A DNA stretch of 58,461 nucleotides from a virus, in IMG/VR virus record IMGVR_UViG_3300033417_000009, one strand, 5' to 3'. Shown piece after piece: positions 322-52,308 of this stretch. Both the position numbers and the translations under genes were made by a program. The notes under the pieces were generated by a model, which searched no databases, had not been told where the DNA came from, and saw nothing but the letters and a program-made list of their open reading frames with translations. Each line of letters starts with the position of its first letter. Position 1 is the first letter of the stretch.

Positions 322-3300
322 CTACGGAGTGTTAGTTGGCGTGCTGGTAGGTGTGCGTGTGGGTGTGACGCTGCGAGTTTTGGTTGGGGTCTCGGTACGT
401 GTGGGCGTCCACAGTGGGCCGATGGTGTTCAACACCACCTGCGCAGGAACCACTACGTGAGTCGTGGGCGTAGGCGTGTTCTGGCTCGTTTGCACCACAG
501 GCACAGCACTCGGTGATGCGAGCATGGTAGGTGTCGGGCTGCCGCCCGGCCCGAATGTTGGTGTTGGAGCTGTCATGGACTCCCGCAGTACACGCACGAA
601 AAAGGTCGCGGCGGGCAAGAAAGTGTTGGCGCCTACTGCGCACACACTCACGAGCACCTGGTCAGGTCCACTTACCATCGCTTGCCACAACAACGGGGCG
701 GATAGGAATTGCTGTGGAGATGTGATTGCCACCATGCCAAGCTCAGCACCCACCACCGTGGTTGTGTAGTTAGCGCACTCGCCGCTGTTGACGAACCGAA
801 AGTCGGTGGTCACAGTTCCGGTAAGTGGCCTCAGTTCCCATTCAATGTTTGGTATCGTGCCAGAAACGTTGCCGCCTAACCTCGTGCCTATGGTAAGTGC
901 CTCCCCATCAGCATCCGGCTCGCTAAGCTGTTTGATCTTGTTGCCGCCACCATCCGCATCGGCGGTAAGGGTGAAATCGCGTACTGGCCCGGGCGTCAAC
1001 ACCACCTCGTCCCAACCCCAAGGCATCGTCAACAATAAGTCGTATTCATCAAAGCCGGTTAATGTGATCGCAGAAAGCGCAGGCGTGGGCGCTGGCGTCG
1101 GCTTGCCCAGCAACAGGCCCAGGTCCACCGGCCCGGCCAACGGCAACTGCACCACACTTGCTGCTCCGTTTTCCACGCTCACATGCACCACCGTACCGCC
1201 GATGCCCTGTGCCCCGGCGGGCAGGAAACCATCCGCAGTCGTCACCCACGTGCGTATAGATGGGCGCATGAGACAGTTTTCTGTGGTGGCTTGCGTGTAA
1301 CGGATCTCAACACTCACGCGCCTATTTGCGGCTGCTAACCCCGCGCTACCATAAACACGCCCAGTGAGCGCCACCGGGTTGCACGCAGGTGTGAAAGTCG
1401 GCGATGGGGCGGTTACTACCGGAGTTGGTGTTTCGGTAGGTACTGGCGTCAAAGTTACCGTTGGTGTTGGGGTGTCAATCTGGAACTGAAAACGAGCCAC
1501 GCCGATGCTTTTGTCGTCGAGGTCAGTGGGAAGCAACGTGGCTTCCCACGTGAACACAAGATCTCCCTGCCGCGCTGAGATCACCGAGCCCCAAGCGTGT
1601 TGTCCGCACACCTGGTCAGGTACATCGTGTTCCCCACCTTTCGGCGTACCATCTTCGTCAAACCTGCGGAACACTTGCCGCTGCAACCCGGTATCGTCTG
1701 TCGTCCATGTGATTACAAAGTCACTGCTTTGCTCGTGAGTAACCGGGTGTACAGCGATATTGATGGCAGTCGTAGGAATAGCAAGTTCAAAAAAAGTCTG
1801 AGTGCCAGTCTGTACTATGTTGGCCAATGTGACATCGCCTACCAATGTTCCCGATACCGATATTCGTTGAAAACCAACGCCAATCCCGTCAGCGTCAGCT
1901 ATGGTTGCAACCAATACCACCGTGCCATCTGCTGCTACTGACACGCCACCTACGTTGTTAATACCCGCAGGTGCTATTGGTTGTAGAACTTGGGTTCCAT
2001 CTGCGTTGTATCGGTACACTACAACGCTTGCCAATGTGTTGCTGGACCACGCGACTGCGCAGTCACCGGCATCGTTACAAGAAATCTTTGGTAGTGTTGT
2101 ATCTACGTCCAACACTTGCGTTGGGCTAAGCGGTACACCGGCCCATGTATACCGTCTGACTGCAACGTCCGCACCTTCGTTATCTAACCACGCAACAATG
2201 AACCCGTTTACATGTGCTGCTACAACAGGGAATTGTTCTTTGTGCGCGCCCCCGCTGTTCACAAAGAAATCATCTTGCACCAGCACACCTGCCGCGTCCC
2301 AAATCTTGCAAAACACGTTCGTGCGTACAAGGCGCGGGGACTGCCAACAAATAACTGTACGCCCAGCAGCGTCCTGCGCTACCGCCGGTCTGCGGTTATC
2401 GTACACAACATTACTTGATACGATCGTTTCACCTGTGATGGCAGCTAGAACTGCATCGAAGTCACGAACATACACAGTGTCGGGTGACGGCGACACGCTT
2501 GTCCACACTACTTTTGACGTACCAGACGCCGTGGTTGCTGCTGCACAATGCTTCTGGGCGCCAGCAACAGTCTCGTTCACCAGCACATCACTCTTTACCT
2601 GCCCGGGGCGGGGTGTGCGTGTTGGTAGGCACGGTGTGCTTGTTGGTGTAGGCGTGTCGAATTGGAATTGAATGGCTTCAATAGACGAATGCTTCGCGCC
2701 CCATTGGTCCTGCGTTTGCACACTTTCCCACAAGAAAGTGTAGAGACTGTCATCGGTACAGGCGAGAACCACATTACGCTGGAAACCATCCCGCGTGCTA
2801 TTCACCGCCCACGGCCCTTCCGCCAACGTGCCATCCACCCTGAACTTTGCGGCCCACACGCTGGACTCGCTGCCATCGCCAAGGTCAGCGCCAGGGTTCA
2901 GAGTGTCGTCTAGAAAATCAGACCACGTCACGACGAAGTCACCGGAAATTTCGGCGCACACAGCCGGTGCACTCCGCTCTGCCACCACATCCGGCACTCC
3001 GCTGTCTTCAATGACCTCCAATTCTGCAAGAAGCCCTGTACCTGTATTGGTCATGCGTCGTGCTTGTACATTCTGGTTCACACTGTCATCTGTTTCCCAC
3101 ACGATCACAAAACGGTTCCCATCCTCATGGCTAACCGATGGCGAGAACTGACTGTCTTGCGCCGTTCCCACGTCGAACAAAGGGGTTGTGATGGCAGGTG
3201 CGCTATTGAGCGCGAGGCCCCGTACGGCTTGGATTACGCTCAGCGACGGGTTTCCGGAAATCAACATCGCATCATCATCTACACCCGCTTGCGCGTCCAC

Positions 3301-6189
3301 GCCCGGCTCAATTTCAAGGTTGGCAGTGTCGCGCAACACAACATCGCCTGACGTTGGTCCAGCCCCGTCAAATGCCCGTGCCAGGATACGGCTCGGGTAA
3401 GCTGCGGTGTTGACCGCCTCTTCCCACACCACCACGAAATCGTCCCTGTCTTGCGGCCACGAAATTATTGAGGGGGATACATCAAAGTTCGTGTTATCTC
3501 CCGGCACAGTGAACTCGGCGCCAGCGGTAGTCACGCTCGTCACCCGACGACCCACCACATCAAACAGCGTTGGGCCGGTGTCCTGAGACCACACCACCAC
3601 AAACTCACCGCTTGTGGAGGTAGCGGCGACCCGGTGCTTTTCCCGCAACACAAACTTTACAGAAGCCCCAGTAGCATTGATGGTAAATTGGGCGTCACTT
3701 GGCGTAGCGGCCAAGTCCAGCTCTCTCCCTACAATGTTCGCGCTCCCGCCACCGGCCTCATCCCAAATCGCAAAAAGCAGGTCGTTATCTTTGCTGTAAG
3801 CAACCGCTGGGTGTGACCGTGACGTGCCGGCGTCAGACCCCGTGCTCACCTGCCGCTCGTCACCCACTTGGTGCGGCCGAGGGGTAAATGTGGGCAGGCT
3901 GGTAACTGACGCAGTGGCAGTCCCCGTGTTTGTGCGCGTGGGCGTTTGCGTTGGTGTGTCTGTGGGGGTGCTCGAAGGTGTGCCTGTACTCGTGGGTGTA
4001 TCCGTGGGAGTTTCTGTTGGCGTTTGTGACGGGCCGGGCGTGGGGGTGCCAGTGATAGTAGGGGTGTTCGTAATCGTTTCTGTTGGCGTAACAGTAGGAG
4101 TTGCGGTCGGGGTAGCGGTTAGCGTAAACGTCGGCGTTGCCGTTGGCTCTGCCGCCACCAACAACAACTGCGGCCTCTCCCCGACAACGCTCCATTCTTT
4201 TGAGCGAAAAAGCGCGTTGTTGTAAAACTGATAGTCCTGTGCCGCAGCTTTCCTCACAAGCCATCCTTCATTCGCTTCTGCGCCGCTAACGAAGTCTTTC
4301 ACGTCATCGGTTACATCAAACTCGAAGAAGCCGAACGGAGTAAATGCATTCATCAAACTCACCGTGGTCGCTACAGAGTCTGCGTGCCCCGGCGTGTTAA
4401 GCCCGTTCCACGTTGCAGGACATGCCGTCGTCGGGCATCTCCACGTGGCCTCTGCTTCAACCCACGGCGTGATGATTCGGTATACTTCCTGCTGTATGTC
4501 GTCGGCGCCCCAAAACTTGTTATTAGTTTTGTAGTAGTACAACCGTAGTTTGGCCTGCTGAATAACGCGCCCACCAGTTTCTACTGCTTGCATCTCAGCC
4601 GTGTTGAAGCGAATAGCGATGCGGCGAAATTGCCAGATCTGTAGGAAATCCTTGGTGCTAAAATTCCTGTTTAAGTAAAAGGAGTTGAAAAAAGTGTCAG
4701 CTTCCGCGGTCAATGTTGTGTTCACAGCGCCAACCGGGGTTTGCGTTGCCGTGACTGTAATCGTGTTCTCTGGCGTGGGCGTGTTAACGGTTGCTGTCAC
4801 CGTTGCCGTGAAAGAAATGGTAGGGGTTGCTGTAGGTGTTCGCGTGGGCGTCTCAGTAGGTGTTTGCGTCGGGGTACGGGTGGGTGTTGGCGTTGGCGTT
4901 GGTGTTGCGGTGGCTACAGTATCTGGGCACCCGGCGAACACGACGCCCCTCGCTTCGCTGGTTGTTACCACGTTAGCAGCAGCGGCGTGCGTTAGCTCAC
5001 CTGTGAAAGGGGAGCTGACCAGTGAAGCGGTGCCTCCAGCCAACCCAACTGCGCCAATGTCGGAAGAACTCACAATCGTACGTCTTGTAACCTGACTCGT
5101 ACCGTCAGACCCGTAGCTAACTTCCCCGCCGATCACGTCGATCTGGTCAAGCCCGCTCATCAACACCACAGCACGGTTCGGCAACGCGCTCATCGCCAGC
5201 GACCAGGCTGTTCCAGTTATGGCTTCTTGCGAACCGCTCGCCGTATCATGTGCGCTAGGCCCGGTGGCTGCCAAAGGCCACACTTGCCCATCTGTGTCCA
5301 AGCCAAAACCCACCAGCACCCCGTTGTAACTACGGAGCGTGCCATTGCTACGGGCGTGGCGTACGGTCACTGTGTAGGCGCCGGGCGTCGCCAACGTGAG
5401 CGCCCCCACCAACGTTATCATTTCAGTTTGCGGTACAGCGGCCAACCGTACCTGAGTTGCTGCTACGGTCACGCCGTTGATTTGAAGGTCATAATCCGCA
5501 GTCAGCGGGGCACCACTATCTATCGTGGCTGACAACGACGCCATGGCTACCACCCGCGTGTCCGCTTCCGTCGTAGTCACGGAAGCAGAAAAACCGCTGA
5601 TGGCTGTGAGCAAGGGGCTAGTGGTTGTGACCCCGGTACCGTCAAGGTCGTCATACCCATGAGGTAAGGTCAGCGTTGTATCATAGCTCGTCAGCGGGAA
5701 AGCCACCACGTCTATGTTGTCGGTGGACAGCGTGCCCCCTGATGTCGCGTGCTGGAACTTGAATGTGCGTGCCCCGTCACTTTCTAGCCCAGGCCACAGC
5801 GAGACAACCACGCCGTTGCTGTAATCGCCGGTGCCTGGTATGTACCGCTCCAATTGCCGGGTCATCGCTGCGGTGGTTTCGCCGCCGCTGGCGCCATCCA
5901 ACGTAACCGCCCACGCCCCAGTTTCCCCGCTCCCCGCAGTGAGAGCCCCGTCGAAGGACGCAAAAGCCAACACCGAGTCTCCTACCTGCGGCACGGCTAC
6001 CGTTACTGAGTAACCGGTGTCTTCAAGCGTTGCGCTGGTGGTAGTATCGACTGTGTCAGTAGACAGGCGTTGGATATCGAGACAACTCGCCAGTGGGGTG
6101 GGCGTCTGCGCATACACGCTCAACCGAGCCATCAGCAAGATTGCCGTAACCAGAAGCGTTTTCGCGCTCATCGCCCGCATCACACTCAT
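322..6189 (-). CDS. Giant secreted multi-domain protein (1955 aa): Sec signal peptide, Pro-Thr linkers, DNRLRE-like domain, two arrays of FVVxW...RRF propeller-like repeats, C-terminal fibre-like module
   Basis: Uninterrupted ORF. The N-terminus [30 protein letters not shown] resembles a Sec signal, and its ATG overlaps the upstream stop (ATGA). There are at least 6 (TPx)n linkers and about 13 repeats such as [14 protein letters not shown] and [15 protein letters not shown]. The motif [21 protein letters not shown] is also present. Confidence 0.85.
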
Positions 6190-9100
6190 CGTACTACCAC
6201 ATAGTAAGTCATCATGGGCGCTGTCGTGGCCCGAATGGCGCACAGTCGCACCGCTACTTGCTCAATTGGTAGAGAAGCGGGCAGGACAAAACCGTCGTAC
6301 CACACGTCCGGCACAAAACCAGCCGGTGAAATGAAAACGGCCATGCCCTGCCGCGCACCGAGTACATCAAGGACCTCAAACACGCACTCGCCGGTAGCCA
6401 GCGCTCCAGTGTTGAAAGTTACCGTTCCCAACAACAGAGGTTCCGCCAACGTCGGGTACGGCCACACACCAGCGAGCACGCCGGTAGCCGCCTGGCCGTA
6501 GGGGATAATGTCGCCGTCTTCAGTAGCAGCGCCAATATCAGTGATCTGGTGACCGCTGGCAATGCCATCTTGCGCCAAGGTGAAGTCGGTTACGGCCCCG
6601 CGCACCAATGTTACCCTGTCAGTGCTCTGGGTTGCGGTCAGGGTGTACTGACCCACGCCGGGCACCACCGCGAGCGCTGTAACGGCTTCTGCCAACGCCG
6701 GGATCTGCGCCACGCCTACCAGCGTGTGCGCCGAGACCGTGGCTCCTTCGTTTTTGAGAGGAGGAATCAACACTCGCATTGGTTGCTGTGCCCCTTCGAG
6801 CGAGAGCTGCACTACGCTCCCGGCTACGGTTGTCGCCGTGACGGGCAGGAAGCCGTAGTCATCAAGAGTCACGGTTTTGGATGACACGTGGATCAAACAC
6901 CCATTCACCAATTGCTCTTCAGTGGTGTCAATGTGGAAACGCCTGCCCGCAGCAAGTTGCCCGTCCACGTCCACCACCTGCCCTGTCAGCCGCACCGACA
7001 CGCAAGAGCTGGTAGGGACAATGTCATCTTGCGTAAGGTCGCGTCTCGGGGTCACGCTTGCCGTAGCGGTAGCCGTAATCGTAGGGGAAGGCGTGTTCAA
7101 AACTACTCCGACTACCGCCACAGCCGTGGGTGAGGGCGCTGGCGTGTGTGTCAACGTAGGTGTGCTTGTAGGTGTGCTTGTAGGCGTGTTCGTTGGAGTC
7201 CTGGTAAAGCCAAATTGAGGAACCTGTGGCACAGCGACCAGCGACGGCGTTGGCGTCGGCGTGTTCAGCGATACCATCGGGTCCGCCTGTATTGAAGGTG
7301 TCGGCGTAAACGTAGCAACGGAAAGCTGTGAGAGTTGGATGCCGGTGCCCATCACCGCGTTATCGCAAGTCACGTCCATCGTCGAAATCTGCCGTACCGG
7401 GTCCACAGTTGGGAAATCGTCTTTTTGCACTGTGAATTGCAGGTAACAGTGTGCCGGTGTGTCGGCCGGGATTGTGAGTGTGGAATCGGGGGTGAATGTA
7501 ATCACGCCCGCTGCTTCCACAGCGGACCACGTGACCCCACAGGTAGTGGTGATCGAATCTTGGTAACTGATAGAATCGTTGTTGCCGGTGCAACCGCCCG
7601 GGGGGTCAGTAGTCTTGCAGTTGAGCGTGAAGGTAGCTTGCGTCAGGTCGCCCTCGGTCCCCCCTGTTACGGCGGCTAACCCGAACGTAAGCCGCACATC
7701 ATCAGTCTCCCCCACGGTATCAACCGCCGGTTGGTTCTCGTAGGTAATCGCCAGCACGACGTTACAAGTCCCGAGCGCGGACGTTGAAGTAGGCGTGGCG
7801 CTTGGCGTGCTCGTGGGTGTGTCAGTGGGTGTGCTTGTGGGGGTAGCTGTCGGCGTTGAAGTGGGCGTGTCAGTAGGCGTGCTTGTAGCCGTCCCAGTAG
7901 GGGTATCGGTGGGCGTGCTCGTGGGCGTGCTCGTGGGAGGTGACGCTGTTGGGGTGTTCAAAGACACTTGCGGCGGCACCGCGACGCTTGGTGTGGGTGT
8001 GCTCGTGTTTAAAATCGCCTGCACCACGACCGCCGCCGTGGCGGTCCTTGTAGGAGAAGAAGTTGGCGTGATTGATGGCCCTGCCACCTGCACTATCGGC
8101 ACCGCTGTTGCTGTCGGTGTAGGAGATTGCGTGTTCAAGATTACCGCTACCACCGGCTGCGGGGTTGCTGTGTTAGAAGGGGTAGGTGTGTTCAACACGG
8201 CTTGCATCACCGACTGTGGAGTCATCGTGTTCGTAGGTGTGTTGGTAGGAGTGTCCGTAGGCGTGCTGGTTGGTGTTGCAGTTGGCGTGTTCGTAGGGGT
8301 ATTTGTTGACGTGCCCGTTGGTGTAACTGTAGGAGTGATCGTTGGCGTGTTCGTAGGGGTTTGTGTCGGCGTACTCGTCGCGGCGGGGGTCAACGTGGCC
8401 GTCGGTGCCTCGAACGCCGCCTCGAACTGCACCGCGCTGGCGCGCAATGTGTCGCACGCGCGGCGCACGCCAAAGTCAGACGCATCGAGATTCACGCAGG
8501 TCCACGCTGCCGCTGTGTCAGGGTCAACCGTGTAAAGCGTGAACTTGTCTGCGTAAGATGTGTTCGTTGAGATCGCAGCCGCAGCGACGGAATCAATCAC
8601 ACTAGCGGTACACGAGCCGCTGCTGCCTGTGGTCCGCGACGAGATCAGATTCAGGCCAGCGTGGATCGGCTCCGAGATCCCCAGCGTGGCGCACGAGTCG
8701 TGCGAGAAGATGCAGTTCACCGTGCTGCCGGTTGTGATGTATGTCGTGTCGTCGTCGGTCGGAGGACCCTCGTCCAGGCACAGGTGCTCCGATGCCTCGT
8801 CGCAGCCGCTAGTGGTCCACCCCATATCACAGGTGCCGGTGCCGGTGGTTGGTAAGGGCATGATTCGAACGTTGCCGGGGTACTCAGTGCCGGTGTGTAC
8901 ATCAACGTCGTCGAAGTTGATGCTGGCCGTCACGTTCGCGAGGGTGTTGCCGACATCGACGCGGGAGTAGTTGACGCTAAAAGATGTGGTCGCGCAGGCG
9001 TCGATTGCCTCGATGAGGTATCCGTTCGCGTCGTACAGATTCAGGTAGACGAGCCCCGTGCCGAAGAAGTCGCGGACCGCCCGGAACTCCACCCTGTACC

Positions 9101-9560
9101 ACATATCGAGGGCCAGCGCTGTCGATGTGGTAGCGCACGCACTCCACCCGCTAGCGTACGTGCCGATGTCGAGCGTGCGGTCCGTGTTCAGAGCAATACC
9201 GTGCCCATTAAGGTTGTCCGTCACGACATACTGGTAGATGACCGTATCGTTCGCGTCGGGAGCAGTCGTGATGCGGAGTCGAAAGGAGGAGCGCAGGTGA
9301 TTATCGTTGTAGCCAGTCTGCTGCACCCGGCACTGCGCGGCGGACGGATTCCACTGGTAGCACCGCCCAGTGAAGCAATCGGTCGCGGTGCTGGTGCAAG
9401 CTCCCGAGACGGTGCCGTTTTGTACGCCTGCGCCGTTGGCCTCGAACGACATGTGAAACAGGTGCGTCGCGTGGGCAGGACTTGCCACTACCCCTAAAAA
9501 GATGGCGCGAACCAGCACACGGCTAATCCACGCCATCTTATCTCGGGGGAAAGTCGCCAT
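6186..9560 (-). CDS. Giant secreted protein (1124 aa): signal peptide, LamG/ConA-like N-domain, long Pro-Thr/LNTPTP linkers, Cys-rich Ig-like domain, C-terminal fibre-like module
   Basis: Uninterrupted ORF with signal-like MAWISRVLVRAIFLGVVASPAHA/T (an alternative start is at 9536). PT linkers span roughly 7100-7260 and 7790-8400. The last ~272 aa are colinear with residues near the C-terminus of the 322..6189 protein. Confidence 0.85.
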   Translation of the reverse strand: MATFPRDKMAWISRVLVRAIFLGVVASPAHATHLFHMSFEANGAGVQNGTVSGACTSTATDCFTGRCYQWNPSAAQCRVQQTGYNDNHLRSSFRLRITTAPDANDTVIYQYVVTDNLNGHGIALNTDRTLDIGTYASGWSACATTSTALALDMWYRVEFRAVRDFFGTGLVYLNLYDANGYLIEAIDACATTSFSVNYSRVDVGNTLANVTASINFDDVDVHTGTEYPGNVRIMPLPTTGTGTCDMGWTTSGCDEASEHLCLDEGPPTDDDTTYITTGSTVNCIFSHDSCATLGISEPIHAGLNLISSRTTGSSGSCTASVIDSVAAAAISTNTSYADKFTLYTVDPDTAAAWTCVNLDASDFGVRRACDTLRASAVQFEAAFEAPTATLTPAATSTPTQTPTNTPTITPTVTPTGTSTNTPTNTPTATPTSTPTDTPTNTPTNTMTPQSVMQAVLNTPTPSNTATPQPVVAVILNTQSPTPTATAVPIVQVAGPSITPTSSPTRTATAAVVVQAILNTSTPTPSVAVPPQVSLNTPTASPPTSTPTSTPTDTPTGTATSTPTDTPTSTPTATPTSTPTDTPTSTPSATPTSTSALGTCNVVLAITYENQPAVDTVGETDDVRLTFGLAAVTGGTEGDLTQATFTLNCKTTDPPGGCTGNNDSISYQDSITTTCGVTWSAVEAAGVITFTPDSTLTIPADTPAHCYLQFTVQKDDFPTVDPVRQISTMDVTCDNAVMGTGIQLSQLSVATFTPTPSIQADPMVSLNTPTPTPSLVAVPQVPQFGFTRTPTNTPTSTPTSTPTLTHTPAPSPTAVAVVGVVLNTPSPTITATATASVTPRRDLTQDDIVPTSSCVSVRLTGQVVDVDGQLAAGRRFHIDTTEEQLVNGCLIHVSSKTVTLDDYGFLPVTATTVAGSVVQLSLEGAQQPMRVLIPPLKNEGATVSAHTLVGVAQIPALAEAVTALAVVPGVGQYTLTATQSTDRVTLVRGAVTDFTLAQDGIASGHQITDIGAATEDGDIIPYGQAATGVLAGVWPYPTLAEPLLLGTVTFNTGALATGECVFEVLDVLGARQGMAVFISPAGFVPDVWYDGFVLPASLPIEQVAVRLCAIRATTAPMMTYYVVVR

Positions 9561-18864: not shown

Positions 18865-19080
18865 ATGCCCACCAACTCCATACCTACCAACAAAGGCCCT
18901 TTTCACAAAACTACTTTGGCCCTGGTAGCTGCGGCCGAGCTGCTCACCGCTGCCATGGTCGCTGTCTATTACGACCGCGCCACGCGCCCAGACGTGTGGC
19001 GCGCCAGTTTCGATGTGTGTCACACCCAGCTCGAACGGGTGGCGCTGGAGTACGAACAATGCTCGAAGCGCTGCCGCTAG
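18865..19080 (+). CDS. Small membrane protein (71 aa)
   Basis: SD aaaggag. The TM segment is TTLALVAAAELLTAAMVAVYY. Confidence 0.5.
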   Translation: MPTNSIPTNKGPFHKTTLALVAAAELLTAAMVAVYYDRATRPDVWRASFDVCHTQLERVALEYEQCSKRCR

Positions 19081-19147
19081 TCATGATCTTCGTTGTCCTT
19101 GTCGTGCTCTACCTAACCAGACACCCTTAACCCCGGAGGAGACCAAG

Positions 19148-20632
19148 ATGCCCACTTCCCCTATGCAACAGGCAATTTATGACCTCGCCCCCTCCCGGCA
19201 ATCGTTCACTGTGAACGCTGTGGCCGGCAGCGGCAAAACCACAACCGGCCTTGCTTTTATCGAGCGCGTCTTACCCGATGTCCAAAACGTGCTCTATTGT
19301 GCTTTCAATAAGCACATCGTTGAAGCTGTTACCGACCGATTGCACCACAACCAGAAGCTAGATTGCCGGACCATTCACAGCTTGTGCTTCCAGCAAGTCA
19401 AATTGGAGTCCGACGCGTCCCGTGCCACGGTCAAGGCGAACAAATATGACAAGCTGGTTGCTGCTGTGCTCGATGCACACTCCGCACTCTGGCGCGATCT
19501 TGGCTATTCCCGCGCCTGGGACGCCGTACCCTCTTTCTCAAAGCTGGTCGATTTCGTGCGGCTGACCTTGACCCCGCCTGATGCCCCCGACGCTATCCAC
19601 GCCATGGCAGCTACCTATAGCTTACTGGCTCCTGCAACGTGGCTGGAATTTATCCCCAGTATTCTTACCGTCGGCGCCAAGCAAGCCGCTCGCCAAGGCC
19701 TCTATGATTTCACGGATATGATTTACCTGCTCAACCGCTGGGACGTGGCCTTAGACCCTTACGATTTTATTTTCCTTGATGAAGCCCAGGACTTGAACGC
19801 GACGCAACTCGCATCCCTGCGGCGTTTCGCGGGACCAGAGAGTGTGGTCATGGCTTGCGGCGACCCGCACCAGTCCATCATGCAATTCTCGGGTTCCGCC
19901 CTTGACTCCTTCACCCGCGTCAAGGCAGGGTTGTGTCACGACAAGGAAATGCCCCTTTCCGTGTGCTACCGCTGTCCCACCAGTGTAGTAGCGTTAGCTC
20001 AGGAGATGGTCCCCCATATTGCTCCAGCCCCGGATGCTATCGAGGGCGAGGTGCGGAACATCCATGAGTCAGAGTTAGCCGACCTCGTGCGACCCGGGGA
20101 CATGGTATTGTGTCGGACGAATGCCCCCCTCGTGTCCGTCTGCCTCGCATTCATCCGCCGGGGTATCCCTGCCCATATCCGGGGCCGGGACATTGGCGCA
20201 TCACTGGCTGCCATAGTCACCAGCGTCAAAGCTACTACCCTGAGCCACTTCCCCGATGCCCTGGATGCATGGGAAGAAAATGAACACACGCGCCTTACCA
20301 AGGCCAAGGCTGGCGAGGGCGCCTTTGACGTGCTCCATGATAAGGTAGATTGTGTCCGCGCTGCTTTTGCGGGGATGAACCCCGCGTCCATCGAAGATTT
20401 CGCAGAGCGTCTCAAGGTCATTTTCTCCGAGGACAATGCGCCTAACCTTGTCACCTTCTCCAGCATTCACCGGGCAAAGGGTCTTGAGGCACCAAACGTT
20501 TTCATCCTGCACCCGGAGAAACTCAGCACCGACCTCGAAGCCGAGCGCAACGTCAAATACGTGGCCGTTACCCGCGCCATGCAGTCGCTCTCGTTCGTCC
20601 GGCCCACCAAGGCGATAGAAGAGCGTTGGTGA
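19148..20632 (+). CDS. SF1 DNA helicase, UvrD/PcrA-like (494 aa)
   Basis: SD ggaggag. Walker A is AVAGSGKTTT and Walker B is FIFLDEAQDL. Later motifs are CYRCP, VLCRTNAPL, SIHRAKGLE and VAVTRA. Confidence 0.8.
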   Translation: MPTSPMQQAIYDLAPSRQSFTVNAVAGSGKTTTGLAFIERVLPDVQNVLYCAFNKHIVEAVTDRLHHNQKLDCRTIHSLCFQQVKLESDASRATVKANKYDKLVAAVLDAHSALWRDLGYSRAWDAVPSFSKLVDFVRLTLTPPDAPDAIHAMAATYSLLAPATWLEFIPSILTVGAKQAARQGLYDFTDMIYLLNRWDVALDPYDFIFLDEAQDLNATQLASLRRFAGPESVVMACGDPHQSIMQFSGSALDSFTRVKAGLCHDKEMPLSVCYRCPTSVVALAQEMVPHIAPAPDAIEGEVRNIHESELADLVRPGDMVLCRTNAPLVSVCLAFIRRGIPAHIRGRDIGASLAAIVTSVKATTLSHFPDALDAWEENEHTRLTKAKAGEGAFDVLHDKVDCVRAAFAGMNPASIEDFAERLKVIFSEDNAPNLVTFSSIHRAKGLEAPNVFILHPEKLSTDLEAERNVKYVAVTRAMQSLSFVRPTKAIEERW

Positions 20633-21587: not shown

Positions 21588-21615
21588 ACCCGCTCGCAGG
21601 GAGGAAAAACGTCAC

Positions 21616-22680
21616 ATGAGTTATCTCGACACCCCTGACACCGGGCGTCTCTCTTACGACAACGTTCGAGCCATCCTTGTTGCATGGCTCGATCGCCACA
21701 AGCGCACCGATTTCCCGTGGCGCGTTCACCCGGATGACGTGGAAGTACCCATCGTGAATACTCTCTACACCACGCCACATGATGAATGTCTCTGCGGTCA
21801 CGCCCTCAGTAGACATACTCGGCGCGAGGGCACTGAGCCTGAGGAGCGCCCGTGCGACATGTGCGTCTGCGCCACCTACCGCAACTGCATCAAGCATGTG
21901 GGTAAGTTGGATTTGCTGGGCCAACCTACCGGGGCCAGCGGCAGCTATTGCCCGGTAGACCACAAGACCACTTACAAAATCGACGCCAAATTCGTCCGGC
22001 AGTTTGATATATCGAGCCAGCTTTCCGGCTACCTGTGGGCAGCGGGTAAGTTATGCGACACGCCCGGCCACCAGCTCGTGGCGTTCATCAACGCCATTGA
22101 GCTATCCCAGCTTCCCACATCCGACCGACGTTGCTCCAAACACGGCGTACAGTACAACGAGTGCTCGCTAGAACACATGAACTGTCAAGTAATTGGCCCG
22201 ATCGAGCGCACGGCCTCGCAGATCGAACGGTGGGAATCGGATGCAATCACATTCGGCATCAGATTCCATAAACTGTGGTCACACGCCCGCCGCTTCGGCG
22301 CCGACGCCATGCCCGATGTACCCATGGAAGGCACATTCAACAACTCCTGCGGTTGGTGTGAGTTTCGGGAGTGGTGTCTATTTTCTCGTTCCACGCTACA
22401 AACAGAGCGCTTCACGCACTCCCCGTGGGAACCATGGGTCCATGCATCTTTGAAGAAGCCCAAATTCACCACGCTCTACATCGACAACACCATTATGCAA
22501 TCCGTGGCCAATTGCTCCACCCTGACCGTTGCTCGCCACGGCTTGCACATGACAAACCCTGAGCGCCAGGGTCCCCTCAACGCAGGAACCGCAGTTCACG
22601 CAGCCCTCGAAGTTTGGTTCAAAGGCGATTCTGTGAAAAAGGCCCTGGCAGCTTTCGATGAAGCCTACATCCCATTTTAG
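21616..22680 (+). CDS. PD-(D/E)xK nuclease, Cas4/RecB-like with Fe-S cysteines; motif order appears circularly permuted
   Basis: SD gggaggaaaaa. Motifs in order: VEVPI (E), GKLDLLG (motif II), PVDHKTT (motif III), SQLSGYLWA (QxxxY), CGWCEFREWC. The normally N-terminal segment IMQSVANCSTL...NAGTAVHAALEVWFKG comes only after those. Confidence 0.7.
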   Translation: MSYLDTPDTGRLSYDNVRAILVAWLDRHKRTDFPWRVHPDDVEVPIVNTLYTTPHDECLCGHALSRHTRREGTEPEERPCDMCVCATYRNCIKHVGKLDLLGQPTGASGSYCPVDHKTTYKIDAKFVRQFDISSQLSGYLWAAGKLCDTPGHQLVAFINAIELSQLPTSDRRCSKHGVQYNECSLEHMNCQVIGPIERTASQIERWESDAITFGIRFHKLWSHARRFGADAMPDVPMEGTFNNSCGWCEFREWCLFSRSTLQTERFTHSPWEPWVHASLKKPKFTTLYIDNTIMQSVANCSTLTVARHGLHMTNPERQGPLNAGTAVHAALEVWFKGDSVKKALAAFDEAYIPF

Positions 22681-22704
22681 TCGGGAGAAAAGTCAACCCA
22701 ACTA

Positions 22705-22734
22705 TTGACATCACGCCACATGGTTGTGTAGAAA
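22705..22734 (+). promoter_or_regulatory. Sigma70-like promoter TTGACA-N18-TAGAAA
   Basis: Read directly. It is preceded by aaaaGTCAAC (22692-22697). The ATG of the next gene is only 13 nt past the -10, with no SD. Confidence 0.45.
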
Positions 22735-22747
22735 ACAACACTCGCAA

Positions 22748-22981
22748 ATGACCACTGCCCAATCAGCTTACGTGTTCACTGTCCCGCACAATCGCATCGC
22801 AGTGTTGTGCAATCGCCATTGTGTCGTGGAACATGGCCCTTACGTAGTCCGCAATTTCATCGGCGACCACATCGACACCCTGCGTCAACACTTGCGCGTG
22901 CTCAAGAAGCGCACCCCCACAAAGAAGCGCACTTCCACAACGAAGGGAACCCACAATGTCCAAGAGGCTAACCCGGGCTGA
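22748..22981 (+). CDS. Small hypothetical protein (77 aa)
   Basis: MTTAQSAYVFTVPHNRIAVLCNRHCVVEHGPYVVRNF... with a basic C-terminus. It would have a near-leaderless start after the 22705 promoter. Confidence 0.5.
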   Translation: MTTAQSAYVFTVPHNRIAVLCNRHCVVEHGPYVVRNFIGDHIDTLRQHLRVLKKRTPTKKRTSTTKGTHNVQEANPG

Positions 22982-23816
22982 CGCCCAGCGCCCCCGTAAA
23001 CCGGACCCAGACCTGCTGTTCGAGATCCACTACTACCACGACCCAGACCCGGAGAAGCCAGATGGCTTCGCGCTCTTCCGCGATGAGCAAAAACAGTTCG
23101 ATCCCACCGCGTGGGCTACATGGATTGGCGACAGTGTAACTGCCGCTGTCGTTGCCGCGCGCCTTGAACAACAATTCGTGATTCAGCCCGAAGTAAAACA
23201 ACCCATGAAGTGGCATGCCGGGGCCACAGACCAACTCGAAATGCAATTGGTCCGCCGGGTGGCCTCGTACCCGTGCAACGTCGTTCTCACCGCGCACATC
23301 GCCGATGCCTACGTAGAACAGCCAACGCCGCAGGGCGTCCGCCGTTCCGACCGACGCGTACCCATGGCCGAAACCAGTGAAGGGCGCCCTATCCTCTTGC
23401 AAGGCATTTCTGCTCCTGGGCGCCTGGCCCGAGACAAAGGTCTCGTGTCACAATACGCCGAAGTCTACCGCGCTTACGTGGTGATGGGCAAGAAAGGCCC
23501 GGAGTGGTACTTGCAAACAGAACCGGACGGCGATTGGATTGTGATGTCACAGTTGCTCGCTCCTGATGGCGCACGCCCGGACTATAAAGAGCTGTGGGAC
23601 AACTACAAGGGGCCAAAGACCCGCCCTCCAGTCCACGCTATCATCTACGGCCACCCCGGCACCAAGAAGAGCACCTTTGCCGCCACCTTCCCAACCCCTA
23701 CCTACGTTGCCGCTTTTGATGCCTATGGCAAAGACATGCCCTACACACGTCTCGGTGAAGTAGAAGAAGACGAAAGTGACCTTGGCGTACCCATCAAGAG
23801 AGTGTACCGTGCCTAG
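22956..23816 (+). CDS. AAA_24/Sak4-like RecA-fold ATPase; Walker A lies at the C-terminus (apparent circular permutation)
   Basis: ATWIGDSVTA (Walker B-like) and CNVVLTAHIAD (the nvi..aH motif) lie in the N-terminal half. VHAIIYGHPGTKKSTFAATFPTPTYVAAFDAYG (the P-loop segment that normally opens AAA_24 proteins) lies at residues ~228-260 of 286. Confidence 0.6.
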   Translation: MSKRLTRADAQRPRKPDPDLLFEIHYYHDPDPEKPDGFALFRDEQKQFDPTAWATWIGDSVTAAVVAARLEQQFVIQPEVKQPMKWHAGATDQLEMQLVRRVASYPCNVVLTAHIADAYVEQPTPQGVRRSDRRVPMAETSEGRPILLQGISAPGRLARDKGLVSQYAEVYRAYVVMGKKGPEWYLQTEPDGDWIVMSQLLAPDGARPDYKELWDNYKGPKTRPPVHAIIYGHPGTKKSTFAATFPTPTYVAAFDAYGKDMPYTRLGEVEEDESDLGVPIKRVYRA

Positions 23817-24168: not shown

Positions 24169-24264
24169 GGCAAAACTCACAAAGTGCGCCTGCCTAGCAC
24201 CCACCATGACCGCTGACTACTGGCAGTGAAATAGTTGGCACCCAACAAGGAAAGGAAACACGAT

Positions 24265-24942
24265 ATGGCAGCGAAAAAGGGAGCCGGTTTCGACTGGGAT
24301 TCAATCCCAACTTCCTCGATGTACCCCAACGGGTACTACAACCTGGAAGTGGTGAAGACCGAAGTCGGCGAGAGTCGCAACGGCTACAAACAGTACACAT
24401 TGGAACACCAGATCACGGAGCCCAAGGAATACGCTGGGCGTCTCTACTGGGAGCGTTTCACAATCGGCAACGACGCCGACCCGGAGGCTGAAGACCCGGA
24501 CACCTGGAAGCAGTCCGTCGGCGCCCAACGTCTGAAGAAGTACCTTCTGGCTGCGAAATTCAAGACCAACGGCCAACACCCCGATGAGTTGATCCCGGAG
24601 CTGGAAGGTGTGGAAGTGTGTGCTCACCTTGCCATCAAGATCCAGACGAAAGGTGATTACAAGGGGCAGGAGCAGCAAACTTCCAACTTCTACGCCCTCG
24701 GTGAAAGGGAGCCGCAGTTGTTGGCGGACTCCGACAAGCCCAACGCCCGTCGCGTCCCGCGCAAGCGACACGAAGTGGATGAGGAAGAAGCCCCGGCTCC
24801 GACCCGTCGGCGTACTCGGGTTGCTGAGGAGGAGGAAGAGGAGGAGCCCGTGCCTCGACGACGACGACGGGCAGCGGAAGAGGAAGAGGAGGAGGAAGAG
24901 GAGGAGCCCGTGTCACGCCGAGCCCGGCGCAAGCGTTCTTAA
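24265..24942 (+). CDS. ssDNA-binding protein, DUF669 / T7 gp2.5-like, with alternating acidic/basic C-terminal tail
   Basis: GFDWDSIPTSSMYPNGYYNLEVVKTEV..GYKQYTLEHQITEPKEYAGRLYWERFTIG matches the DUF669 opening. The tail is EEEEEEEPVPRRRRRAAEEEEEEEEEEPVSRRARRKRS. Confidence 0.65.
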   Translation: MAAKKGAGFDWDSIPTSSMYPNGYYNLEVVKTEVGESRNGYKQYTLEHQITEPKEYAGRLYWERFTIGNDADPEAEDPDTWKQSVGAQRLKKYLLAAKFKTNGQHPDELIPELEGVEVCAHLAIKIQTKGDYKGQEQQTSNFYALGEREPQLLADSDKPNARRVPRKRHEVDEEEAPAPTRRRTRVAEEEEEEEPVPRRRRRAAEEEEEEEEEEPVSRRARRKRS

Positions 24943-25006: not shown

Positions 25007-26149
25007 ATGCCCCGCCGTATTGGTAAGGTGCCGCCGTCCGGCCCCCTCACCGCCCGCATCGTCGCAATCAGTGAAGCCCCAGACGAACACGAAGAACGGT
25101 TGGGGCGCCCATTCGCAGGCCCCTCCGGCTATTGGTGGGAGCAATGGCTTACAGCGGCCAGCTTACATCGCGAAGACATCTATGTGGACAACGTGTTCCC
25201 TTACAGGTGCCCCGGCAACAAAATAAAACATGGTCCCCGTGATGAGATAGAGACGTGGGCCAACAATCTCCACGCCCGTCTCACTGCGTTGAAAGACCCC
25301 ATCGTGATCGTTCCCATGGGTAACGTGGCCCTCCGCGCCCTCACCCGTGAACCATTGTGGGCGCACACTAGCCGCAAGATTGGCGACTGGCGCGGGTCCA
25401 TTTTGCCCTACCACATGACCGATGGACGCCAGGCAAAAATCATCCCCACTTACCATTCCGCCGCCACGTTCCGCGACAACTCGCTTGTGAAATTGATTGT
25501 GGCGGACTGGTGCCGTGTTGCAGCTGATCAGCACTTCTACAAGCTACGCCATCCAGTCTACACGAGCTACATCCCTGGACATACCCGGCGTGGTACACTG
25601 GAGCGCTACCTCGATGCAGCCAGGGATCCCGCTGTAGTCATGGCCATCGACATCGAGTGCCCAAACAAACGGATGGCGTGCGTAGGTTTCTCTTTCCATC
25701 CCGATGAAAGTCTCACTCTGCGCTGGCCTGACGACTACGCGGCTATTAAGACTCTCTGTGAGAGCCCCTGTCGCAAGGTGGGGCAGAACTTTCGTTTTGA
25801 CCGTTACTGGCTCCACCCTCCCTCGGGCTTAGCAGAGCTGTCCCGCAAGCACTGGCTCATGCCTCGGCTTCCAACCATCCGTGTGGCCGGGCGCATCTTT
25901 GACCTACTAGACATGCACCATGCCCTCGATAGCACCCTACCCCATGACCTCGCCACTATGGCCTCGCTCGACACTCGTCAGCCCTACTGGAAGAAAAGCT
26001 GGAAGGATTCTGACGAAGTTGACCGCACGCCCTTCGATGACCTTTGTCTCTACAACGGTATTGACTGCTGCGTCACCCGATATCTCTATGACATCTACAC
26101 CACACGATTGAAGGAGACCCATTATGATGAACCACAAGATTTTCAATGA
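25007..26149 (+). CDS. DNA polymerase A, N-terminal fragment: family-4 UDG-like domain plus 3-prime-5-prime exonuclease domain
   Basis: ISEAPDEHEERLGRPFAGPSGYWW...DNVFPYRCPGNK matches GEaPG..E...G.PF.G.sG. Exo I is AIDIEC, Exo II is QNFRFD and Exo III is LYNGIDCC. The ORF stops about 15 aa after Exo III. Confidence 0.75.
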   Translation: MPRRIGKVPPSGPLTARIVAISEAPDEHEERLGRPFAGPSGYWWEQWLTAASLHREDIYVDNVFPYRCPGNKIKHGPRDEIETWANNLHARLTALKDPIVIVPMGNVALRALTREPLWAHTSRKIGDWRGSILPYHMTDGRQAKIIPTYHSAATFRDNSLVKLIVADWCRVAADQHFYKLRHPVYTSYIPGHTRRGTLERYLDAARDPAVVMAIDIECPNKRMACVGFSFHPDESLTLRWPDDYAAIKTLCESPCRKVGQNFRFDRYWLHPPSGLAELSRKHWLMPRLPTIRVAGRIFDLLDMHHALDSTLPHDLATMASLDTRQPYWKKSWKDSDEVDRTPFDDLCLYNGIDCCVTRYLYDIYTTRLKETHYDEPQDFQ

Positions 26150-26357
26150 CCCTGACGACCGCTCCAATTACAACGACCCGCTCCTAGATCAGATCAACCT
26201 CGACGATGACGAGGACGACCTCGAAGATGGCGATGAAGACGAAGATGAAGATGAAGAAGACGCGTGGAGCGATGACGAGGACGACGACTACTTTGAACAG
26301 GAACGCCCTTGGAAAATACGATGGCCTGACGGGCGTAATGCTAATGAGTGGTATTGA
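26124..26357 (+). CDS. Hyper-acidic 77-aa protein inserted between the two PolA fragments (DNA-mimic candidate)
   Basis: SD AAGGAG lies 7 nt before ATGATG. By my count 33 of 77 residues are D/E (DDDEDDLEDGDEDEDEDEEDAWSDDEDDDYFEQE). It sits in the third frame, overlapping the end of 25007..26149 and the start of 26338..27987. Confidence 0.6.
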   Translation: MMNHKIFNDPDDRSNYNDPLLDQINLDDDEDDLEDGDEDEDEDEEDAWSDDEDDDYFEQERPWKIRWPDGRNANEWY

Positions 26358-27987
26358 CCCACCCCACCGCCGCACAAAAAACTACCTCGCGTTCTACCGC
26401 CGTCATTATCAGGAGTTATCCGAACCCCTCTTAGCGCTCATGCGCCACGGCATCCGCGTGGATGTGACCGGCGCTCGTCAGCTCTATGCTACGCTCCGTG
26501 AGCATTGCAATAAGGTAGCCGCGCACCTGGATGACCTTGTAGGCGCCAGTACTTGCGTTTGCTCTCACCACACCAACAAACACACCCCTAAGACCATCAA
26601 CATTTACAAGGGCGTGTTACGCAAAGATGGCAAACCCCGCAAGCCAAAACTCAAAACCACCCACCCGTGCGAACGATGCGCGTGCAACGATTTCACTCCA
26701 CGCTTCCCGTCATTGATCGGGAAGAAAGGGCTTTCCTCGCAAAAAGTGGTGCGTTACCTGTACGATCGTACCACTGGCCTCGGCTTCCCGAAGCAGAAAC
26801 TCCAGGGCCAGACCACCGGCAACGAAATCACCATTCGCAAGCTAACGCTCCGCGCTCGTAATTTTACCTCGCCCAAGCGTGGTCCTAAAGCCAGCGCCCC
26901 CTTCTGGCAACGTGACCCTGAGCACGCCATTGCTGTTTGCCAAGCAATCCTTACCCACCGAGAATGGAGCAAATTATCCGACTACGTTAACGTGACCAAG
27001 TTCGACATCGACGACCGAGTGCGCTGTACATACAAAACCACCACGGAAAACGGGCGCCTTGCTTCCAGCAAAAACCCCCTGGGCACGGGCTACAACTTGC
27101 AGAACATCCCCCGTCCTGGAGGGCCATCCGACCCACACACCCACATCCGTAAGGTGTTCCTCCCGGACGATGGGATGGTTCTCTGGGAATGTGATTTCTC
27201 ACAGATTGAAGATCGTATAGTGAAGGTACTCTCCAAAGTACCTGAAGCAATCGCTGAAGCAGGCCTACACCCTGACACATTCGATAGCCACAGCATAGGG
27301 GCTCAGCGCATCTTCTCCCGCGTGCTCGGCATACCACCTGAAGACGTAGACGTAAAAGTGGAAGTGGCCCCTGGCACCTCCCGTCGCCAGATCTCCAAGC
27401 CCATCCGTCACGGCATCAACTATGATATGAGCGCCGCTCGTATCCAGGACACCTTACTCAAGGATGGCGTGGTCCTACTGCTCGCCATGTGCAAAAAGCT
27501 GCGGGCCGCAGGTCGTGAACGCTACGTCGAAATTTACCAACGAGAACGGCGCAAGCGTATCATGCGACACCACGCGCTCGTGAACTCATGGGGGCGCCGG
27601 TTGGATTTCCACTGGTGCCGCCTTGATGGCGCTACTTATCGACGGGGCTACGCTTTCTCCGCAGCCAGTGAGAACGCGGATTGCTTGAATCAGCTCGCCT
27701 TGATTCCCCTTTATTATTACATCATGGACAACAACCTCCAGAGCCGTGTCAACTTGCAGGTCCACGATTCACTGGTGGGCTCCTCCCCGCTGGGCGAACT
27801 GTGGGAGATCCTCAACTTCCTTAATACCGTGATGTCCCAGGTTCGTGTGTACGAGGGGGTGGAACTGGGCGTGCCGGTGGAGTTTAAAGTGGGCACCACG
27901 TGGATGTGCGAGTTATCTTACAAGCGCTTGCCGTCACCAAAGGCACTGCAAGCTGACGTGGAAAATTTGCTGGAGGGAAGGGGTTGA
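26338..27987 (+). CDS. DNA polymerase A, polymerase-domain fragment (549 aa)
   Basis: EPLLALMRHGIRVD opens the pol domain. Further motifs: GRLASSKNPLGTGYNLQNIPR, motif A DFSQIEDRIV, motif B RRQISKPIRHGINYDMS, motif C QVHDSLV. The upstream 44 codons in the ORF track are an out-of-frame reading of the acidic ORF. Confidence 0.8.
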   Translation: MLMSGIDPPHRRTKNYLAFYRRHYQELSEPLLALMRHGIRVDVTGARQLYATLREHCNKVAAHLDDLVGASTCVCSHHTNKHTPKTINIYKGVLRKDGKPRKPKLKTTHPCERCACNDFTPRFPSLIGKKGLSSQKVVRYLYDRTTGLGFPKQKLQGQTTGNEITIRKLTLRARNFTSPKRGPKASAPFWQRDPEHAIAVCQAILTHREWSKLSDYVNVTKFDIDDRVRCTYKTTTENGRLASSKNPLGTGYNLQNIPRPGGPSDPHTHIRKVFLPDDGMVLWECDFSQIEDRIVKVLSKVPEAIAEAGLHPDTFDSHSIGAQRIFSRVLGIPPEDVDVKVEVAPGTSRRQISKPIRHGINYDMSAARIQDTLLKDGVVLLLAMCKKLRAAGRERYVEIYQRERRKRIMRHHALVNSWGRRLDFHWCRLDGATYRRGYAFSAASENADCLNQLALIPLYYYIMDNNLQSRVNLQVHDSLVGSSPLGELWEILNFLNTVMSQVRVYEGVELGVPVEFKVGTTWMCELSYKRLPSPKALQADVENLLEGRG

Positions 27988-51195: not shown

Positions 51196-52308
51196 CTAGC
51201 CGCTAGCCAGCAAGGTGTCCAGCAAACCAGGATTCTCCCTGTCAATCTTTGCAAGCTGGCGTTCGCTCATGTTGATGATGTCTTCCCGGGTCAACTGCGG
51301 CTTGCTGGAAGTGCTCCCACTGGTGCTAGAGAGCGAACCCTGCTCGACCTGTGACCGTTGCTTCGACTCCCGCACCTTTTCCACTGCCGTTTTCGGCTTC
51401 GTGATTGCTTCTGGGACCTGCGGTGCTACCGCTGGAGCTTTCCCGGACCACCCATCGGCCACCGCTACCTCGTAGAGTATCTCCGGCAACGGCCTTCGCG
51501 TCTCCTGCGCCACCTGTAACGCAACACCAAGCCGCTGTTGAAGAACCTGTTCCATCATCTGATCCGGGACCCCCGCCGCTTTCAACCGCGCCGTCTCTCG
51601 TTGCTCCAGAAAATTCATGGCGTCATCGTAATCCGCTTTCTGCGCCTTGACCGTTGCGATCTGCGCGTTCAACACTTGCTGCTGTTGGAGTGCGTGCTGT
51701 TGCTGCGCCAAGTAAGCAATTTGCTGTTGTGCTTGTATCGTCTGCACCCGACTCGCCTCTAGCGGGTCTTCTTGCCACAGTTGAGCCAGTTCTGTGTCTG
51801 TGTACGGTCGATCGAGGCCAGGGCGACCCTGCTGCTGGTCCTGCTGCCCCCGCCCCTGTAACGTGGATAGCAACTGCTGGAATTGTTGCTGCTGCTGTTC
51901 CAGCGCCACGAACCGGGCTTGCGCCTCATCGCGTTCCCGTTGCGCCTGTCGCAGGTCGGACCACCGAGGGTTCTTTCGCCTCTTCTTCTCGGCGTCAGTT
52001 TCCTGCGCAGTCTCCATGCCCTCCAGGTTTTCATCCCCTTCCGGCTCACCCTCCGGCTCTTCTTCGGGCTCCGGTTCTGCTTCCGGATCTGGAGTAACCT
52101 CGGGCTTCGGCGTGTCTCCTTCCCCATCTGGCGGGGCCTCCGGCTGTACCTCAACACCGTCTGACTCTTCTGGGGGCTCCTCTGGCAACTCCGGCTCTAC
52201 CCCAAAGAAGTTGTCATGGGCCGGTTTAATCGCGGGCTCCGGCGGCGCCTCAGCGCCAAGCGTGTTCGCACTTCCCTGTACCTGTGCCGCGGCAGCTCTC
52301 TTAGCCAT
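51196..52308 (-). CDS. Scaffolding protein (370 aa)
   Basis: It lies between the portal and capsid genes. It has an acidic PE-rich N-region and a Gln-rich coiled coil (ALEQQQQQFQQLLSTLQGRGQQDQQQ). SD gagaggaga precedes the ATG at 52308. Confidence 0.7.
   Translation of the reverse strand: MAKRAAAAQVQGSANTLGAEAPPEPAIKPAHDNFFGVEPELPEEPPEESDGVEVQPEAPPDGEGDTPKPEVTPDPEAEPEPEEEPEGEPEGDENLEGMETAQETDAEKKRRKNPRWSDLRQAQRERDEAQARFVALEQQQQQFQQLLSTLQGRGQQDQQQGRPGLDRPYTDTELAQLWQEDPLEASRVQTIQAQQQIAYLAQQQHALQQQQVLNAQIATVKAQKADYDDAMNFLEQRETARLKAAGVPDQMMEQVLQQRLGVALQVAQETRRPLPEILYEVAVADGWSGKAPAVAPQVPEAITKPKTAVEKVRESKQRSQVEQGSLSSTSGSTSSKPQLTREDIINMSERQLAKIDRENPGLLDTLLASG

Follow-up and report, generated by a model that had tools for sequence, protein, structure and literature searches.

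A phage PD-(D/E)XK nuclease that is very probably a natural circular permutant, encoded beside a permuted Sak4-like ATPase

Cas4 and AddB nucleases hold a single 4Fe-4S cluster, the 'iron staple', between a lone N-terminal cysteine and the three cysteines of a C-terminal CxxCx5C motif. Elsewhere in the PD-(D/E)XK superfamily, circular permutation is already known from Hef (1j22), whose first core helix is contributed by the C-terminal end of the chain (Steczkiewicz et al. 2012, PMC3424549). The gene described here occupies positions 21616..22680 on the plus strand of IMG/VR virus record IMGVR_UViG_3300033417_000009, a stretch of 58,461 nucleotides referred to as the window. Its product, a Cas4/RecB-like PD-(D/E)XK nuclease, carries the four cysteines of the Cas4/AddB-type iron–sulfur (Fe-S) nucleases in a chain order reversed relative to that family. 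Two homologous segments are swapped and the window holds no extra copy of either, and we conclude that the protein is very probably a natural circular permutant; given the precedent of Hef, it is not a new kind of system.

The gene is complete, encoding 354 amino acids from an ATG at 21616 to a stop codon that ends at 22680, as indicated by the open reading frame (ORF), a ribosome-binding site, a match to Pfam family PDDEXK_1 and 12 full-length homologues. A GGAGG sequence at 21600-21604 lies 11 nt 5' of the ATG, and the stop codon of the preceding gene is at 21587. A longer reading from 21484 was rejected because it overlaps the preceding gene and the homologues all begin just before 'DRLS'. 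The translation contains VEVPI at residues 42-46, GKLDLLG at 96-102, PVDHKTT at 113-119, SQLSGYLWA at 134-142 and CGWCEFREWC at 245-254, followed by the block LYIDNT...NCST...GTAVHAALEVWF at residues 287-335; all motifs quoted in the preliminary description of this locus were thus located in the order given there, with the N-terminal-type block after CGWCEFREWC.

Division of the family profile into 'core' and 'N-block' hidden Markov models (HMMs) defines the two swapped segments, both on the plus strand. The core segment (residues 9-272; 21640..22431), identified by a core HMM score of 390 bits and by BLASTP alignment to the canonical-order homologue P0013 (305 aa), is equivalent to residues ~76-299 of canonical relatives; it comprises the helix DRLSxxNV, the strands bearing E43, D99 and D115-H-K117, the Q135xxxY139 helix and the CxxCx5C motif. 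This last motif, C245-x2-C248-x5-C254 (22348..22377, plus strand), supplies the three 'C-terminal' Fe-S cysteines, which are internal here; it is invariant in all alignments and coincides with the end of the profile. A variable linker from the old C-terminus to the old N-terminus (residues 273-284; 22432..22467, plus strand) lies between the core and N-block HMM matches and, in the BLASTP alignment to P0013, corresponds to the C-tail plus the N-lead of canonical proteins. The relocated N-terminal block follows (residues 285-350; 22468..22665), recognized by an N-block HMM score of 110.8 bits as well as by BLASTP, Pfam and the AlphaFold2 (AF2) model; it contains the strand LYIDN, Cys300 (22513-22515), 46 residues past Cys254 and presumed to be the fourth Fe-S ligand, and the first core helix, which bears His328 and Glu332 (22597-22611).

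The swap is evident from profile and pairwise comparisons alike. The native protein passes the Pfam gathering threshold of PDDEXK_1 (PF12705), its residues 83-254 matching profile positions 120-246 of 247 with 38.7 bits against a cutoff of 22 (E 1.4e-9), while its C-terminal 72 residues, scanned alone, match positions 9-60. The native chain is not collinear with the profile and becomes so only once the block is placed in front in silico; the de-permuted sequence gives a single full-length match, residues 15-326 to positions 9-246, at 40.8 bits. The wrap-around match to PDDEXK_1 that the preliminary description proposed as a check was therefore obtained, and its prediction that joining the C-terminus to the N-terminus would restore the conventional order was borne out. 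In a single-pair BLASTP comparison, to which the E-values refer, the nuclease aligns with P0013, whose block 'VDNSTLRAVARCTTEAVWRY...GSAVHAALDTYF' is N-terminal, in swapped order: residues 8-272 to 76-299 (E 3e-29) and residues 287-354 to 1-69 (E 1e-11). The N-block HMM likewise matches the N-termini of 135 canonical relatives, at about 50-90 bits among the matches listed. An hhalign comparison of the permuted and canonical alignments reported the core segment alone.

A six-frame HMM scan of the window found one core (21640-22431), which was the only strong, full-length match to the core HMM, and a single block, in frame with it (22468-22665); no second copy of the N-block was found, upstream or elsewhere. 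Similarly, tblastn with the proteins of relatives found no extra N- or C-parts left by a duplication in the 275-bp spacer behind the gene, downstream or elsewhere in the window. The identification of the C-terminal ~70 residues with the N-terminal block of the family was thus upheld against the possibilities that these residues form an unrelated domain or that an ordinary N-terminal block exists upstream.

The permuted order is shared by a family. A profile search of 1.84 billion representatives returned 1854 nuclease family members, and 162 sequences were classified with the two HMMs: the block precedes the core in 135 (canonical), follows it in 23 (permuted) and is absent from four. Twelve full-length relatives found by homology search share the permuted order at 41-52% identity to the window protein. 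The four block-less members look like truncated canonical proteins, at least one of them (P0119, which starts inside the block) being truncated, and several begin with residues that are not ATG-derived. Canonical chains start a few residues ahead of 'YVDNS' and end a few residues past the conserved '..PW.P'; in the permuted proteins these old ends are connected by a linker of 10-25 residues, variable in sequence. The permuted proteins all share one cut point, and their new ends lie in the loop between block helix 2 ('AL.AFD..Y') and the helix 'DRLS..NV', a loop of 10-15 residues in canonical proteins. As a consequence of this layout, the four presumed cluster ligands (C245, C248, C254 and C300) fall inside 56 consecutive residues, whereas in canonical proteins they bridge both chain ends. 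The permuted proteins are all metagenomic, are called 'hypothetical protein' wherever their source names them, and are absent from the phage isolate collection. A tblastn search with the window protein against 50,697 phage records gave no match, and the canonical P0025 matched only four metagenomic phages, annotated 'PD-(D/E)XK nuclease superfamily'.

Conservation was assessed in 21 permuted proteins of full length whose identity to the window protein is 31-52%. The nuclease has the catalytic E ... D ... (D/E)xK residues and the QxxxY helix, as E43, D99, D115-H116-K117 and Q135...Y139; E43, D99, D115, K117 and Q135 are invariant in the permuted set and Y139 nearly so, and among 36 canonical proteins the counterparts of E, D, K and Y never vary and that of Q hardly does. 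All four presumed cluster cysteines are likewise invariant in the permuted set. Within the relocated block, C300, H328, E332 and about 10 further positions are invariant, and no conserved internal methionine precedes it. Because the catalytic and Fe-S residues are invariant at identities of only 31-52%, the permuted form is likely to be old and under selection.

Two additional clusters of cysteine and histidine, both probably Zn sites, lie within the core. An insert between core strands (C58-x-C60-x-H62 ... C80-x2-C83-x-C85; residues 57-86; 21784..21873, plus strand) is presumed to form a Zn-binding knuckle; C58, C60, C80 and C85 are invariant in the permuted proteins, and C83 and H67 nearly so. 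At least 16 of the 21 permuted proteins have the strict insert motif, CxCxH...CxxCxC, as do a few canonical proteins (P0019, P0032, P0033 and P0062); P0013 lacks the insert. Since some canonical relatives carry it too, the insert probably predates the permutation. Beside the DHK strand, C112 hardly varies in the closest permuted relatives, all of which bear the insert. The second cluster, a CHCH site (R171-x-C173-x2-H176 ... E182-C183-x3-H187; 22126..22176, plus strand) seen in alignments of the whole family, is presumed to be a second metal site; C173, H176, C183 and H187 are invariant in the permuted and canonical alignments alike. In P0057, the CHCH unit is triplicated.

An AF2 model of the nuclease built from a 13-sequence alignment has a predicted local distance difference test (pLDDT) score of 84 and a predicted template modelling (pTM) score of 0.82. 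The relocated block is modelled at pLDDT 80-97; poor definition is confined to the first six residues, a portion of the Cys-rich insert (pLDDT 57-82) and the CxxC loop (242-253). Foldseek against BFVD returned phage models named 'PD-(D/E)XK nuclease' and 'RecB-like exonuclease', with E-values down to 5e-7. Against the PDB, the best matches included ACE1 (9iab), AdnAB, MGME1, Cas4 SSO0001 (4ic1), RecE and AddAB, with probabilities of 0.7-1.0, E-values of 0.012 or worse and template modelling (TM) scores of 0.2-0.3, values obtained with a sequential aligner on a permuted chain. A sequence-profile search of the PDB with the canonical alignment gave just a weak match to MGME1 (E 0.02).

The nearest known counterparts of the permuted form are canonical phage PD-(D/E)XK nucleases (PF12705; among them P0013 and P0019), homologous to the window protein over the whole length at 27-35% identity. 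They have the same catalytic residues, CHCH site and four Fe-S cysteines and are likewise encoded upstream of an AAA_24/Sak4-like gene; the difference is that their N-terminal ~70 residues are C-terminal in the window protein. Named canonical relatives in BFVD include 'PD-(D/E)XK nuclease superfamily [uncultured Caudovirales phage]' and 'RecB-like exonuclease [Arthrobacter phage KellEzio]'. With Cas4 (SSO0001, 4ic1), the Argonaute-associated, Cas4-family ACE1 (9iab) and AddB/AdnAB, the protein has in common the PD-(D/E)XK core, the QxxxY helix and a distal cysteine plus CxxCx5C, and is set apart from them by its permuted chain and its two extra Cys/His metal-site inserts. Neither the native nor the de-permuted sequence matched the NCBIfam cas4 model TIGR00372 or any other NCBIfam model, and no cas gene is found among the annotated neighbours, which are phage replication and recombination genes (arrays of clustered regularly interspaced short palindromic repeats, CRISPR, were not specifically scanned for); for these reasons the nuclease is unlikely to be a CRISPR Cas4. 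Hef and the XPF-family nuclease domain show the same type of rearrangement, yet they belong to an unrelated branch of the superfamily and represent an independent event; moreover, the block moved in the window nuclease bears a cluster ligand, and close canonical relatives of the protein persist. To our knowledge Hef has no Fe-S cluster. No description of a permuted Cas4/RecB/AddB-type Fe-S nuclease was found in the literature, and searches for circular permutation together with Cas4, Cas4-like, Sak4 or RecA-like returned just papers on circularly permuted genomes.

These comparisons have led us to propose a model for the architecture and origin of the permuted chain. The canonical chain begins with a block of ~70 residues, which comprises a short strand, the lone Fe-S cysteine, the His/Glu helix and a further helix, and continues through the catalytic sheet to CxxCx5C. 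Because the N-terminal cysteine and the three C-terminal ones hold one cluster, the two ends of such a chain should be adjacent, and the seam, joined by the cluster, would be a structurally natural site for their fusion, in line with the preliminary description. In the permuted protein the old C-terminus would lead through the ~12-residue linker into the old N-terminus, the new ends being placed in the loop past block helix 2, and the fold and the active site (E43, D99, D115-x-K117, Q135xxxY139 and H328/E332) would be expected to remain unaltered. The arrangement may have arisen when the gene was duplicated in tandem and in frame and the outer N- and C-parts were then lost, a route that we infer and regard as moderately likely. 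Such a duplication would have happened once, in an ancestor already bearing the insert, and one old event of duplication, fusion and truncation appears to be the most economical reading. In function, the nuclease is probably a 5'-3' end-resecting exonuclease of the phage recombination and replication module, a role suggested by its family and its neighbours, and would pass single-stranded DNA to the Sak4-like protein encoded downstream; other exonuclease/annealase pairs of phages offer an analogy for this pairing.

Several observations weigh against parts of this account. The CxxC loop falls below pLDDT 50 in the AF2 model, which was made without cofactor, and we infer Fe-S binding and nuclease activity from conserved residues alone. 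The weak Foldseek E-values against the PDB, which may be explained by the poor handling of permuted chains by a sequential aligner, are no independent proof of the identity of the nuclease fold. A neighbour-joining (NJ) tree of 152 taxa, built after de-permutation, unites the 21 permuted proteins in one bipartition whose sister is the canonical, insert-bearing P0019, but the bootstrap is 21/100, so that a single origin of the permutation is weakly supported. Lastly, the preliminary description had suggested looking for relatives of canonical order and for tandem-duplicated intermediates; the former were found in abundance (135 against 23 permuted), but no tandem or double-block forms (N-core-N or core-N-core) occur among the best 150 family representatives. 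Three long canonical proteins (P0054, P0061 and P0085; 593-640 aa) were rejected as candidate duplications, since they carry inteins instead: each is interrupted, exactly within the catalytic D-H-K|TT motif, by an intein-like insertion of ~300 residues that has a homing-endonuclease-like middle and ends in 'VTHN'.

It could be argued that the C-terminal 70 residues are a decaying in-frame remnant of a second, truncated tandem copy and that the nuclease is N-terminally truncated and probably dead, duplication followed by truncation being the standard route to such an arrangement. The block, however, stands at the same place in 23 proteins, some just 31% identical to the window protein, and keeps its invariant Cys300, His328, Glu332 and about 10 other positions. 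Without it the first core helix and the fourth ligand would be missing, yet the remaining active site is invariant; the window contains no other copy of the block, and AF2 packs it at the high pLDDT given above. Conservation thus appears to have largely refuted this explanation, which we consider very improbable, and the related concern that the block might be the beginning of a second gene copy with its own start is answered by the lack of an internal start and by the same invariant residues. An error of assembly or reading frame, by which gene pieces were wrongly joined, might be suspected of a metagenome-derived contig in which the neighbouring gene is rearranged likewise; it is contradicted by 8 contigs, recovered from independent ENA, Logan and JGI samples, that all encode exactly this 354-aa protein beside the same neighbours, on account of which we do not regard the permutation as an assembly artefact. 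The same order in 22 further proteins from other contigs and the full permuted neighbour gene on the independent contig L004 also speak against such an error, to which we give hardly any credence.

Natural circular permutation could also have been reached by gene fission and re-fusion, with the N-block first a separate small ORF, or could have had several independent origins. This fits the absence of duplication intermediates among the best 150 representatives, the bootstrap of just 21% for monophyly of the permuted group, and the seemingly independent permutations of the adjacent Sak4-like gene, which suggest that such events recur in the module. It is at odds with the four block-less members, which resemble truncated canonical proteins (P0119 begins within the block), and with the cut point common to all permuted proteins and the strict Cys-rich insert motif in at least 16 of the 21; we hold these alternatives to be unlikely, and a single duplication remains the origin that we prefer.

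The gene next to the nuclease (22956..23816, plus strand) encodes a Sak4-like (AAA_24) ATPase of 286 aa that is itself circularly permuted, as determined by swapped BLASTP segments, tblastn and alignment. Its C-part (23013-23597, plus strand) precedes its N-part (23622-23807, plus strand), in which the Walker A sequence GHPGTKKS lies at 23649-23672. Profile matches cover profile starts only (AAA_24 positions 5-29 of 195 and phrog_124 positions 42-73 of 382) and place this Walker A region at residues 224-256; the AAA_24 match, confined to the Walker A stretch (residues 228-252 of 286), scores 23 bits, below the 27-bit cutoff. In BLASTP, the ATPase aligns with its orthologue in L002, a related contig of 58 kb, in two swapped segments, residues 20-214 to 71-272 (52% identity, 6e-74) and 223-284 to 3-66 (58% identity, 6e-21), and the L001 orthologue likewise gives swapped segments. 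No second copy of either part was found in the window by tblastn. Despite the sub-threshold score, homology to canonical AAA_24 proteins is clear from these alignments: like the Sak4/AAA_24 single-strand annealing ATPases, the window protein retains Walker A, a Walker B-like DS motif and the other conserved positions, at 52-58% identity to canonical orthologues, and differs in having the ~60-residue Walker A segment at the C-terminus. AF2 predicts a compact structure for the permuted ATPase (pTM 0.78), but Foldseek with this model yielded no informative match in the PDB (best E-value 1.3).

Four of the 26 clusters of ATPase homologues are permuted, at two cut points, and in NJ trees these four stay apart from one another. 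The window protein (P0163), P0169 (from L007, beside a permuted nuclease) and P0176 share a cut just before 'IHYYHD', while in P0186 (from L010, where the adjacent nuclease is canonical) the cut falls ~45 residues farther on and immediately precedes the Walker B-like 'LVIDS'. P0163, P0169 and P0176 were grouped in 0/200 NJ bootstraps, and both halves of each are nearest to canonical proteins; for the N-part of P0163, for instance, identity is 71% with canonical P0164 and P0165 and 60% with permuted P0169. Such relationships suggest that the ATPase was permuted independently several times, or that alleles recombined. The shared junction 'T[RK]PP[IV][HR]' was rejected as proof of a common origin of the permuted Sak4 proteins, as canonical N-termini also read 'PPIH' or 'RPxIH'. 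The ATPase homologues of relatives lie at L002:7047-7886, L001:7496-8392, L007:2437-3297, L009:161-922 and L010:2040-2837. The order PDDEXK then AAA_24 is kept in relatives, with a canonical nuclease in L001 and L010 and a permuted one in L002 and L007.

With a nuclease that would have been permuted once, long ago, and an adjacent RecA-like Sak4 ATPase that would have been permuted repeatedly, the recombination module of this phage group might be a natural hot-spot of protein circular permutation, a suggestion that we make tentatively and consider rather doubtful. If it is true, a recurrent generating mechanism would be implied, for example frequent in-frame tandem duplication plus deletion through the phage's own annealing recombination. 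The nuclease would then be, as far as literature searches indicate, the first 'iron-staple' nuclease, and the ATPase the first Sak4/RecA-like P-loop ATPase, known as a natural permutant. Should better phylogenies confirm the repeated permutation of the ATPase, it would provide an unusually clear natural case of recurrent circular permutation. The nuclease alone is a neat, moderately surprising case of protein evolution, to which the apparently recurrent permutation of the ATPase adds somewhat. It amounts to a natural experiment on the Cas4/AddB 'iron staple', the ends pinned by the cluster having been fused and new ends opened elsewhere, with conservation over deep divergence; this supports a role of the cluster as a structural clamp at the N/C seam. 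A chain holding all four ligands in one short stretch may also serve as a scaffold for engineering or folding studies. Profile and structure searches under-score these proteins because the chains are permuted, as with the Pfam matches marked '(faint)' or '(weak)' and the sub-threshold AAA_24 score, and permutation-aware annotation of phage recombination genes is therefore needed.

The two permuted genes are separated by a spacer of 275 bp (22681..22955, plus strand). It has no comparable counterpart in two relatives, the genes overlapping in L002 and lying ~50 bp apart in L007. An ORF beginning within it (22724/22748-22981; 77-85 aa) has no detected homologue, and tblastn found no remnant of the nuclease or ATPase gene in the spacer. 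No significant direct or inverted repeats and no promoter-like sites were found there, and terminator-like sites are no commoner than in shuffled sequence.

The surrounding module consists, in order, of a UvrD-like helicase gene (19013-20632), two small or unknown ORFs, the nuclease, the Sak4-like ATPase, small ORFs, a DUF669-like gene, a gene for a protein of the uracil-DNA glycosylase (UDG) superfamily combined with a 3'-5' exonuclease (25007-26149, plus strand), the polymerase and primase/helicase-like genes. The product of the DUF669-like gene (24235-24942, plus strand; 235 aa) matches DUF669 weakly and has a long acidic tail, which is rich in Glu and Arg and includes runs of 7-10 Glu. The protein is plausibly a partner of the Sak4-like protein similar to single-stranded DNA-binding proteins. 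A family-A polymerase (PolA) is encoded at 26206-27987 (plus strand); the DNA polymerase is split into two consecutive genes, which match one PHROG polymerase profile at positions 480-831 and then 836-1231. Farther along the window, a P22-like portal gene lies at 52301-54505. Two giant ORFs on the minus strand (322-6243 and 6186-9560) encode 1973 and 1124 aa, the latter product having no Pfam match. A 561-aa ORF at 55884-57569 (minus strand) has a faint Hint-domain match and may encode an intein-containing terminase.

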